A stretch of DNA of 64,000 nt from Eledone cirrhosa (taxonomy: Eukaryota): contig OZ024746.1 in the NCBI GenBank assembly GCA_964016885.1, positions 55,180,001-55,244,000 on the forward strand. The letters are read 5' to 3'. The notes beneath the pieces are model-generated. The model made no database searches and was not told the origin of the DNA. It saw only the letters and a program-made list of their open reading frames with translations. Position numbers and translations under genes: made by a program. How positions within the stretch are numbered: position 1 is the stretch's first letter; each line of letters opens with the position of its first letter. Shown here piece by piece: positions 5,197-12,896 of this stretch.

Positions 5197-6358
5197 ACGA
5201 AGGAATTGTGGTAAGGAAACAGATGGACCATAACGCACCAGAGTACTCAATACTTAGGGTAGTAGAGTGGGAAATAGGAAAAGGTATGAACCAGACGGCA
5301 GAGTTCAAGCCGTTTCGACGGCTATTTCTGGACTAAATTAACATTTTTAGCCTGGTAAATAAATAGCCGAATTGTCAAGGAGTACTTCCTTATATGGGAA
5401 CATTGTAGTTGTCAAGAGGATTGGTCAAAATGTGTTGTAAACACAAATAAATCTATCATGGCATTTGGTGGGAGGTAGGGGTGGCTGAACTTGGCTGTAG
5501 AACAATGATTAGCCCATCGATCCTCTGTAGCCTCAGTACTCACACGCCCCTGTAATTTTAAGATAGAATTGGCCGATTACGCTTTACTAACAATTTATAG
5601 CAAATGTATTATTAATGTTGTATCTTTTTGTTACTACTCCAATTCTACAATTTCATAATTTCTTATTTAGTATTTTCTATTCACAACTTATTAACCTGTA
5701 ATTGTAAGATAGCATTGGCGGATTACGTTTTACTAACTATTTATAGCAGCCGTGTTAGACCCCCTTAAAAGTTTGCATTATTTGTTTCACTACCCATTTC
5801 TACAATTTCTTATTTAGTATTTTCCATTCTCAACTTATTAAACTCTTCTATAGCTTTGCCGTACAAGCAACACCTACTAATTATAGCAGCTGTTTCTAGA
5901 CTGTTTTTTTTTTTTTTAATTCTTTTCTCACTATCTAATTTTTTATATAATTTTTTTATTTTTTTATATTTTCATTATCTCCTACTCTCATTTGACTTAC
6001 CTATTTTTTAACCCCCCCCCCCTTTTTATCTCCGGAACAATTTTTCGACTTTTCATATACTATCCTTAGATTCTGCTGTATAGATTTCACTTTCAACGCC
6101 TGAATGGCTTTACTCACTCCCTCATTGTTCTACCGGCAAGTTCAGCCACCCCTACTTGCCACCAAATGCCATGATAGATTTATTTGTGTTTACAACACAT
6201 TTTGACATATCCTCTTGACAACTACAATCTTCACATATAATGATGTATCCCTTGACAAGTTCGGCTAATTATTTAGCAGGGTAAACATTTTAATTTAGTC
6301 CAGAAATAGCCGTCGAAACGGCTGGAGCTCTGCCGTCGGGGTCATACCTTTTTCCTAC
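5197..6358 (+). mobile_element. Non-coding Hydra-type PLE terminal repeat: inverted 3' piece (5197-~5508) joined to a direct copy (~5510-6358)
   Basis: Direct part matches 57720-58800 (tcctctgtagcctcagtac...gatagaattggccgatt...tagccgtcgaaacggc). The left part is the reverse complement of the same 3' end, including the tail seen at 58820-58875. Flanked by TA repeats. Confidence 0.8.
6246..6343 (+). ncRNA. Type I hammerhead ribozyme, U3-A8 core variant
   Basis: atccc-TTGACAA-g ttcggcta...tagccg tc-GAAA-cggc tggagctct gccg-T-C-ggggt; GUC cleavage triplet. A degenerate minus-strand copy lies at ~5290-5385. Confidence 0.65.
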
Positions 6359-6377
6359 ATATATACATATAATATTT

Positions 6378-6542
6378 AATAATTGTTTCTACAATTTGGA
6401 ACAAGGCCAGCAATTACCCAATGCATTACTGGTACTTTATTTTATCGACCACGTAAGGATGAAAGGCAAAGTTAACCTCGGCGGGATTTGAACTGAAAGC
6501 ATGGCGTCCGACCCTTTACCGATACTGCCAATACACCGCCCT
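6378..6542 (-). mobile_element. tRNA-derived SINE (octopus-type, CORE-like body)
   Basis: Minus strand ggcggtgtattggcagtatcggt...gttcaaatcccgccgaggttaactttgcctttcatcc...gtcgataaaataaagtaccag...gctggccttg; B-box GTTCAAATC; many copies in this window. Confidence 0.8.
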
Positions 6543-6657
6543 ATATATACATATAATAATAAATATATACATATAGTAATAAATATATATATATATATAT
6601 ATATATATATATATATATATATATATATATAAATATATGTATATATATATATATATG

Positions 6658-7290
6658 TTGTTATACTTGGGGAGGGTCATATTTGCGTAATATTGCCAGA
6701 ATTAATAACGGAACACACTCACTGTTTGGTTGGTTTTCGCTTCTCGCACAAGCACAATAACAACAAGCACATAAACACACACTAGTCACCCAGCAGACAC
6801 AACACTATACACACTAGTCACACAGCACACATAACACTATGCACACACGCAAACGCATGCGCAAAGAAGACAAAATAAAATAAGATAAACAAACAAGCAA
6901 ATAAATAAATAAATATATAGACAGACTGAATAAAAAAATGGCGTAGACATACAACACAACAGGAGGAACAAATAATATAACACCACTGACGATGTTGCAG
7001 ATGTGCAACGAAAGATTTATGTAAATTATGTAAACTATATATATGTGTTTGTGTCTATATTGTATCTGTATTATTTTTGACCGTCGGTCAGTCAATGGCA
7101 ACATTGAGGACCGAGTAAGTTAGATCGCAGATATAAAAGACAGCGAGAAGCGAAAACCAACCAAACAGTGAGTGTGTTCTGTTATTAATTCTGGCAATAT
7201 TACGCAAATATGACCCTCCCCAAGTATAACAATATCTGTTTCGACACACGATTTCATATAAAAAACCTCGCTAAACTAATTCATCGCCGA
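6658..7290 (+). mobile_element. PLE terminal-repeat derivative with 90-bp 5' inversion
   Basis: 6658-6747 is the reverse complement of 7143-7232. The 3' end resembles that of the PLE at 8950-9038. Contains an HHR motif and is embedded in (TA)n. Confidence 0.75.
6984..7021 (+). ncRNA. Minimal type I hammerhead motif (weak stems I and III)
   Basis: ca-CTGACGA-t gttgca gatg tgcaac-GAAA-gatt-T-A-tg. Confidence 0.55.
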
Positions 7291-7434
7291 TATATATATA
7301 TAAATATATATATATATATATATATATATGAATATATATATATATATAAATATATATATATATATATAAATATATATATATAAATATATATATATAGATA
7401 TGTGTTTGTTTGTATTTGTTTATTTATTTGTTTA

Positions 7435-11229: not shown

Positions 11230-11626
11230 ATATATATATATGTATATATATGTGTATATATATATATATATATATATATAGAAACACACAGATACAGTTG
11301 GGTGCGGATGCATTCATGTATATATGTGTGTGTCCGCATGTATCTGTGTGTTTCTAAATATATTAATAACTCCCTCTGGTCGAGCAATCTTTGAAGTGTG
11401 GGGACAACTGGAAAGCTTCCATTACTCATACTTCTCGCCTTCTTCACTACCTCTTCTACGGCCTCGATATGAATACCCCCTCCGCCTCCGTGGTATTTTC
11501 TTCGTGGTTATAAGAGGCTTAGCTCTGTTTCTCGACCGTTATATCGCGTGACTATCTCCCCCTCCGCCTTTTGGGATTCTTTCTCACGTCGTGTAGACGC
11601 GTTCTTGAGACTAGTAAAATGAGGTA

Positions 11627-11714
11627 TCCTCTTGATAAGTCGGCAGACCTCGCAAGGACTCTATATCTTTGATATATTGTTTTTGTTTATGCCACGAAAC
11701 TACGTAGTCGAGGA
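11627..11714 (+). ncRNA. Type I hammerhead, U3-A8 variant, unit 1
   Basis: tcctc-TTGATAA-gt(c)ggca[long loop 2]tgccac-GAAA-ctacgtag-T-C-gagga; palindromic stem III ACTACGTAGT; predicted cleavage after C11709. Confidence 0.75.
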
Positions 11715-12217
11715 ATTTAGGAACAGTTTAGGTATGATACATTTTATTACTAATTACATCTAAATGTTTCTTCTCTCTTCATAATGTATTTTTAACTCTG
11801 ATACTGGTTCAGTCTGGTTCAAACTGAATTGGTCTGTCCCAGTCATTCATTGAGCAACATCGGTGAAGTTGGCACCCTTAACTCACAGTTGGGTGCGGAT
11901 GCATTCATGTATATATGTGTGTGTCAGCATGTATCTGTGTGTTTCTAAATATATTAATAACTCCCTCTGGTCGAGCAATCTTTGAAGTGTGGGGACAACT
12001 GGAAAGCTTCCATTACTCATACTTCTCGCCTTCTTCACTACCTCTTCTACGGCCTCGATATGAATACCCCCTCCGCCTCCGTGGTATTTTCTTCGTGGTT
12101 ATAAGAGGCTTAGCTCTGTTTCTCGACCGTTATATCGCGTGACTATCTCCCCCTCCGCCTTTTGGGATTCTTTCTCACGTCGGGTAGACGTGTTCTTGAG
12201 ACTAGTAAAATGAGGTA

Positions 12218-12305
12218 TCATCTTGATAAGTCGGCAGACCTCGCAAGGACTCTATATCTTTGATATATTGTTTTTGTTTATGCCACGAAACTACGTAGTC
12301 GAGGA
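12218..12305 (+). ncRNA. Type I hammerhead, U3-A8 variant, unit 2
   Basis: Same as unit 1 but the stem I 5' strand reads tcatc (one mismatch). Confidence 0.65.
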
Positions 12306-12808
12306 ATTTAGGAACAGTTTAGGTATGATACATTTTATTACTAATTATATCTAAATGTTTCTTCTCTCTTCATAATGTATTTTTAACTCTGATACTGGTT
12401 CAGTCTGGTTCAAACTGAATTGGTCTGTCCCAGTCATTCATTGAGCAACATCGGTGAAGTTGGCACCCTTAACTCACAGTTGGGTGCGGATGCATTCATG
12501 TATATATGTGTGTGTCCGCATGTATCTGTGTGTTTCTAAATATATTAATAACTCCCTCTGGTCGAGCAATCTTTGAAGTGTGGGGACAACTGGAAAGCTT
12601 CCATTACTCATACTTCTCGCCTTCTTCACTACCTCTTCTACGGCCTCGAAATGAATACCCCCTCCGCCTCCGTGGTATTTTCTTCGTGGTTATAAGAGGC
12701 TTAGCTCTGTTTCTCGACCGTTATATCGCGTGACTATCTCCCCCTCCGCCTTTTGGGATTCTTTCTCACGTCGTGTAGACGCGTTCTTGAGACTAGTAAA
12801 ATGAGGTA

Positions 12809-12896
12809 TCCTCTTGATAAGTCGGCAGACCTCGCAAGGACTCTATATCTTTGATATATTGTTTTTGTTTATGCCACGAAACTACGTAGTCGAGGA
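12809..12896 (+). ncRNA. Type I hammerhead, U3-A8 variant, unit 3
   Basis: Same motif as unit 1. Confidence 0.75.

Follow-up and report, generated by a model that had tools for sequence, protein, structure and literature searches.

U3-A8 hammerhead motifs in Penelope-like elements and tandem repeats of Eledone cirrhosa, with predicted self-cutting

A 64,000-nucleotide stretch of the Eledone cirrhosa genome (contig OZ024746.1, positions 55,180,001 to 55,244,000; hereafter the window, part of a 3.0-Gb genome) holds four repeat families, A to D, whose copies contain hammerhead ribozyme motifs in which core positions 3 and 8 are U and A (heptamer UUGANAA) in place of C3-G8 (CUGANGA). We put at about 0.7 the probability that these are hammerheads of Penelope-like elements (PLEs; families A and B) and of tandem repeats that use Penelope enzymes (families C and D), with self-cutting that is predicted from the fold and is probably slow and carried out by dimers. 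The feature is real and had been correctly read in a first-pass annotation of the window; both the U3-A8 variant and its Penelope-like home are already published. All the motifs named in that annotation are present, the positions given for family C (10642 and 10963) being the 3' ends of stem I and not the cores. The features of the four families are as follows.

6247..6342, plus strand: family A type I hammerhead, an aged copy; core UUGACAA at 6252-6258, GAAA at 6315, predicted cut after C6337
5939..6357, plus strand: 3' region of a family A element, ending about 17-20 nt beyond the cut site in a TA-rich run
5197..5508, minus strand: inverted family A copy with a decayed hammerhead (core 5378-5372) and a longer (+97 nt) tail
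58695..58790, plus strand: second family A copy; C3·A8 core CUGAGAA at 58700-58706
57177..57521, plus strand: remnant of the family A protein C-terminus, 86% identical to locus L231 (described below), upstream of the C3·A8 copy
10282..10322, minus strand: family B minimal hammerhead; core UUGAAAA at 10317-10311, GAAA at 10296, predicted cut after 10287 (GUA)
10359..10398, plus strand: inverted partner of family B; core 10364-10370, GAAA mutated to CAAA
10195..10483, no strand assigned: family B inverted pair, found as a self-match; short terminal-repeat remnants of a PLE with reverse transcriptase (RT) and GIY-YIG domains
10527..11164, minus strand: family C array of two non-coding units of about 320 bp, with an inverted piece at 11088-11230
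10620..10710, minus strand: family C hammerhead 1, with extended stem I; core 10682-10676 carrying U4C, predicted cut after 10646
10963..11008, minus strand: family C hammerhead 2; core UUGAUAA at 11003-10997, stem II broken, GGAA
11294..12968, plus strand: family D array of 2.8 units of 591 bp, 99% identical, with an inverted piece at 11272-11352
11627..11714, plus strand: family D hammerhead 1; core 11632-11638, GAAA at 11696, palindromic stem III, predicted cut after 11709
12218..12305, plus strand: family D hammerhead 2; core 12223-12229, with a single mismatch in stem I
12809..12896, plus strand: family D hammerhead 3; core 12814-12820, predicted cut after 12891

Four hammerhead families with a U3-A8 core

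The four motifs are confirmed as hammerhead folds of type I whose core has U3-A8. Each has three stems around the core and is open at stem I, which in family B is only 3-4 bp long; in the family A copy at 6247..6342, stem I has 5 bp, stem II 7 bp, and stem III is a 4-bp hairpin with a palindromic loop. U4, G5 and A6, A9, the GAAA, U16.1 and H17 are conserved, with position 7 free. The Watson-Crick pair between positions 3 and 8 is U3-A8 in B, C and D and in about three-quarters of A, and is absent in 1,483 of 6,000 A copies. Among the first 100 matches listed for each family (contigs C1 and C2 only, tallied by hand), UUGANAA accounted for 99 in B, 95 in C, 99 in D and 74 in A. Half of the eight copies noted in the window are damaged: 10364 has CAAA, 10682 has U4C, 11003 combines a broken stem II with GGAA, and 12223 has a stem I mismatch.

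We searched the window with a full hammerhead descriptor, allowing all 16 combinations at positions 3 and 8, and compared the result with 60 shuffles. The descriptor retrieved eight C3-G8, four U3-A8 and one C3·A8 matches, against shuffle means of 0, 0.02 and 0.03, respectively, and of at most 0.1 in every class. A looser descriptor, applied with eight shuffles to a genome sample of 799 kb (80 evenly spaced 10-kb stretches over four contigs), yielded 13 U3-A8 matches (shuffle mean 2.6, maximum 4), of which 11 belong to families A, B and D, and 67 C3-G8 matches (shuffle mean 0.5), both counts being inflated by tandem arrays; there were also eight A3-G8 matches (shuffle mean 1.1), five of them within ATG-repeat runs. 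The first-pass annotation had suggested a comparison of UUGANAA with shuffled sequence, and the excess holds for the structured motif but not for the bare heptamer TTGANAA in the 799-kb sample (842 occurrences vs 822-906 in five shuffles), so the signal is carried by the structured motif only. Within the window, the bare heptamer is enriched (72 vs 54.8 in whole-window shuffles). As that annotation had also anticipated, the loci are missed by a strict CUGANGA-based search, which would overlook about one-sixth of the structured matches (13 U3-A8 vs 67 C3-G8 in the 799 kb).

Genome-wide copy numbers were obtained from exact patterns and are lower bounds: at least 36,349 for the 3' half of family A and 6,000 with its core region, 6,371 core-bearing copies of B, 519 of C, and 5,932 of D with the core (7,286 for its 3' half). 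Reversed-pattern controls returned zero for each family, and blastn at E 0.05 found no cross-family match between A, B, C and D. The descriptor counts far above shuffles, together with these family cores, bear out the claim of four families with a U3-A8 hammerhead fold. In an Rfam scan, the four families were absent among the best 150 of 223 matches (73 weaker matches lie beyond these).

Penelope-like elements and tandem repeats that carry the motif

The 3' region of family A at 5939..6357 matches window positions 58386-58804 at 74%. Most copies of the family end inside loop II with the core missing (in 43 of 58 the upstream anchor was absent). At locus L231, two family A hammerheads form direct repeats 3,118 bp apart that flank an open frame of 786 codons, and an inverted truncated copy lies upstream. 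The encoded protein measures 719 aa from its first ATG, which lies about 190 nt after the predicted cut, and has 2,054 full-length relatives. It matched no Pfam family at E 0.01 (RVT_1 only at E 0.1) and no PDB entry; it does contain RT and YIG motifs, with BLASTP identities of 21-23% to RT-bearing PLE proteins, and its RWR (for RWK), DKT, CxCX5C, CxxC and CxH motifs are those described for Hydra-clade PLEs. Judged by these protein motifs, family A is the terminal-repeat ribozyme of a Hydra-type PLE. Hammerhead terminal repeats, an inverted 5' copy, a tail and a (TA)n target, as in endonuclease-bearing (EN+) PLEs, are all found in family A. Hydra-clade EN+ PLEs (Craig et al. 2021, PMC8557442) resemble family A in these motifs and in a length of about 720 aa, as well as in their (TA)n targets, inverted 5' copy and tail; the Hydra hammerheads are called canonical in that account, whereas those of family A are U3-A8 or C3·A8.

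Family B lies downstream of, and on the same strand as, an open reading frame (ORF) with RT and GIY-YIG domains and a CX4CxxC linker (L237 and L238). This single ORF, with Pfam matches to RVT_1 and GIY-YIG, has the make-up of an EN+ PLE, and only downstream and inverted hammerhead copies were found around it. For a second subfamily of B, core usage is known from three copies. A tandem family of about 480 bp (L067, L169 and L178) has a C3-G8 core with a long loop II; its stem I and 3' flank resemble those of family B, of which it could be a canonical relative.

The proteins of A and B are 21% identical, and by sequence the two families represent terminal-repeat ribozymes of two distant Penelope-like retrotransposons. 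Because they sit in elements so far apart, two independent origins of U3-A8 are likely; the four origins implied by the first-pass annotation are not demonstrated.

Families C and D consist of non-coding units in tandem, every unit bearing a single type I hammerhead, which is the organization of retrozymes that lack long terminal repeats (non-LTR retrozymes); against the unit size of 150-450 bp given for these (PMC7229834), C (320 bp) falls within the range and D (591 bp) above it. In family C, a compensatory variant that preserves the palindrome of stem III is present in 3 of 38 distinct copies, the main form being found in 15 of 38. At L091, L096, L108 and L117, a subfamily of C has one additional A separating stem II from GAAA, a further variant next to the core. 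The D array ends in (TA)n about 77 nt beyond its last cut site. We regard C and D as retrozyme-like tandem repeats with Penelope-style (TA)n ends, which likely use Penelope enzymes. As candidate partners of D we considered PLE fragments near D in L285 and L286, which have no shown link to it, and a fragment in L306, which is separated from it by a TA run. Contigs of four sequencing runs cover unit D with no listed core change, a tandem junction and a circle being indistinguishable in such data. Family D words (79-95%) were also present in sequencing runs labelled as three different organisms, none of the runs listed being recorded as RNA, and the family may therefore be shared across species.

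All four families terminate in (TA)n at fixed distances beyond the cut site; two alternative ends are frequent and match the PLE tail. Family A ends at +17 (64 of 186) or +97 (63 of 186), family B at about +74 or +141, family C at +133/134 (15 of 32) and family D at +75/77 (16 of 37).

The window contains many (TA)n runs and retroelement fragments besides. A decayed canonical core at 6986, outside families A to D, lies upstream of a broken PLE fragment (7671-8560; GIY-YIG at E 0.002), and further Penelope-like ORFs with weak RT and GIY-YIG matches are located at 32433-34611 (plus) and 61379-62185 (minus). Long frames at 15095-17047 (plus), 20597-23525 (minus) and 26185-29742 (minus) resemble, by eye, endonuclease/RT proteins of long interspersed nuclear elements. 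Canonical hammerheads are found in a retrozyme-like 468-bp tandem array at 54661-56743 (4.5 units, 99% identical, each with a CUGAUGA hammerhead), as well as in its inverted copy at 54265-54336; the same family recurs in L158, L161 and L171, and its Rfam match was Hammerhead_HH9 at 37.7 bits, under the gathering score. An inverted canonical pair at 53440-53720 (cores at 53496, minus, and 53635, plus) has a 15-bp stem II and forms a long hairpin. Tandem arrays of 310 bp with a minimal canonical hammerhead, of which up to 11 units were seen, occur in L171, L176 and L168.

Fold conservation and the C3·A8 stage of family A

With all seven core positions left free, 98 of 100 family A copies among the matches listed read YUGANAA; position 7 of the U3 copies (first 100 listed) was G in 47, U in 13, A in 8 and C in 6. 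We then compared 88 distinct copies, counting a variant if it was common to at least nine of them. Such lineage-level variants affected 1 of 41 stem and core columns vs 11 of 36 loop II columns (p=0.0009), the single stem/core variant changing G-C to G-U; positions 3 and 7 also vary. Part of the 5' half is fixed by the selecting patterns, and a test of the 3' half only, with 25 unconstrained columns, gave p=0.02 (1 of 25 columns there vs 11 of 36 in loop II). This distribution supports the view that selection kept the hammerhead fold in family A.

The earlier proposal that double substitution implies selection for function holds up in part: the fold is conserved in A, but selection on the 3-8 pair itself is a weakened claim, because the coding lineage of A carried C3·A8 over nested branches and never fixed A8G. 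Only 24 family A copies genome-wide have G8 (7 with C3, 16 with U3 and 1 with A3), close to the background C3:U3 ratio, and genome-wide patterns revealed no C3-G8 sister lineage, the single A8G change, from which the canonical pair would result, never having been fixed. For family D, 14 single mutants turned up and no C3-G8 lineage; C3-G8 does occur in one other match, whose flank is altered. Since neither A nor D has a C3-G8 sister lineage, no compensatory flip is observed within a family.

CUGAGAA is present in both repeats of single insertions (L288, L291, L235 and L236), and C3·A8 must therefore already have been in the template. A tree was built from the last 666 bp of the ORF in 23 family A copies plus an outgroup (of 29 rows, five were dropped because they had no downstream core and one as a duplicate; some rows are inverted halves of one insertion). 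Strongly supported branches require position 3 to have changed twice on this tree, and none of 200 bootstrap trees permits a single change. The order of cores runs from UUGAAAA/UUGACAA through CUGAGAA, over several nested nodes, to UUGAUAA/UUGAGAA on the shortest branches; the root is weak, the outgroup being distant, and a history in which C3 is ancestral and gave rise to U3 twice, separately, may also fit. A second tree, built from the hammerhead flanks after masking of the core, is in broad agreement with the ORF tree. In the nine C3·A8 copies, changes at codon positions one, two and three numbered 9, 5 and 28 when common and 43, 45 and 53 when private (p=0.0013). The shared changes favour third codon positions, which argues that the C3·A8 lineage was coding and under purifying selection. 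Lineage-level C3 cores all have G7 (CUGAGAA in 95 of 100 among the matches listed), and U3 lineages use A, C, G and U. By these sequence comparisons, the demand on the 3-8 pair in family A appears loose, and its coding lineage to have passed through a C3·A8 stage. That the family spread while the pair was mismatched suggests that cutting may be weak or dispensable.

Predicted self-cutting and its alternatives

Folding was assessed with two-dimensional models that take no account of tertiary contacts. The unconstrained minimum-energy fold of two strands is a double hammerhead for A, C and D, and stem I is extended, with an internal loop, in A and C; B forms stems II and III. As predicted circles, the C and D units gave z scores of -4.3 and -6.4 (40 shuffles). 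Two copies would pair through the palindromic stem III. In A and B, cleavage after GUC or GUA would trim the element RNA from read-through transcripts; in C and D it would release monomers, which could circularise and be re-inserted by a Penelope RT/endonuclease.

The published record agrees with the first-pass view of U3-A8 as a compensatory alternative. Perreault et al. 2011 (PMC3088659) describe several rare natural examples and, citing another paper, report the variant as active in vitro; 3-8 covariation there, as here, is a natural, compensatory variant, although their examples are rare and ours are family-wide states of high-copy elements. Some 1,300 U3-A8 hammerheads were found in Penelope-like elements of Schistosoma mansoni (Cervera and de la Pena 2014, PMC4209133) with a dedicated descriptor, and the supplement lists UUGAUAA and UUGAAAA cores. 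These Cercyon elements share with our families the core covariation and both heptamers, along with PLE terminal repeats, inverted pairs, palindromic stem III and predicted dimer cleavage. Unlike in Cercyon, stem III of A, C and D is a real stem, of 4-5 bp or long and palindromic, and these families have no extra base between positions 9 and 10.1; A and D have loops II of 35-45 nt, and copies number about 17,000 (exact patterns) rather than about 1,300. Families C and D resemble metazoan non-LTR retrozymes in their non-coding units with one type I hammerhead each, their coexistence with PLEs and a strongly self-paired predicted circle. In coral, mussel and axolotl, circular RNAs are expressed from such tandem type I repeats (Cervera and de la Pena 2020, PMC7229834), for which an origin in PLEs has been proposed (Li et al. 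preprint 10.64898/2026.07.22.740005). Families C and D differ in the U3-A8 core, in the 591-bp unit of D and in being known from DNA.

Several observations weigh against self-cutting hammerheads served by Penelope enzymes. As monomers, five of six tested copies had a hammerhead-fold probability of about zero, the hammerhead being the best fold only for a young A copy (0.53). In B, where stem I usually has 3-4 bp, the free fold is lower in energy than the dimer hammerhead by 2.6 kcal/mol, the cost of forming that stem. The 1,483 family A copies with C3·A8 (CUGANAA) lack the pair, and for neither C nor D did an autonomous partner come to light. The cleavage of metazoan PLE hammerheads is weak, also in dimers (PMC4209133), a natural hammerhead with CUGANAA showed no co-transcriptional activity (PMC8490949), and core mutants left insertion of a lizard PLE in vitro unimpaired (PMC11167929). 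In that lizard PLE a broken 3-8 pair abolished cleavage, which also required protein; the general acid of the hammerhead is the 2'-OH of G8 (PMC6155905).

A serious, though distinctly less probable, alternative is that the fold was kept for a non-catalytic role (protein binding, an RT priming site or dimerisation) or as a passenger, with negligible cleavage, and that drift by way of mismatched states led both to U3-A8 and away from it. It gains from the inactive CUGANAA hammerhead and the lizard insertion result, from Naiad PLEs, which thrive without hammerheads (PMC8557442), and, within family A, from the lack of an A8G lineage and from a C3·A8 state that extends over well-supported, nested branches in the tree of an ORF subject to purifying selection. 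Yet U4, G5, A6, A9, GAAA and the cleavage triplet did not change as N7 and loop II drifted, and this is the pattern of catalysis; the youngest A subfamilies again have a Watson-Crick 3-8 pair, and B, C and D are uniformly U3-A8. Very improbable is post-insertion decay of a canonical CUGACGA to UUGANAA by CpG deamination and a C-to-T change: the window core UUGACAA does have C at position 7, but A8 is fixed family-wide, N7 is mostly G, U or A, only 24 copies of A have G8 and near-identical young D units all read UUGAUAA, so that the family counts refute it. Chance matches in AT-rich repeat DNA can be dismissed, since four unrelated sequences each give a full three-way junction at the known PLE hammerhead position and the window shuffles give 0.02, so that the descriptor tests and two-strand folds outweigh the unenriched heptamer in the 799 kb and the 2.6 U3-A8 matches per shuffle of the loose descriptor.

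Within the preferred reading of self-cutting hammerheads, the long-lived C3·A8 stage of family A is worth following and qualifies the selection argument. A literature search that covered few subscription papers yielded no report of an amplified C3·A8 lineage. Tentatively, and at odds we consider rather long, family A may record a natural path from U3-A8 to C3·A8 and back to U3-A8, with the rest of the ribozyme intact, in an autonomous Hydra-type Penelope. In the boldest form of this proposal, CUGAGAA may be a new active hammerhead core, rescued, as we would suggest, by a C3-G7 pair in a register shifted by one base or by a C·A wobble aided by the element protein. Failing that, a PLE may have gone without cleavage over a long part of its past and then regained it; if true, this would bring evidence from within a genome to the open question of the purpose of PLE hammerheads. 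Family A provides three successive natural cores in one scaffold together with a nearly intact young ORF, a series that makes the need of a Penelope element for ribozyme cleavage directly testable.

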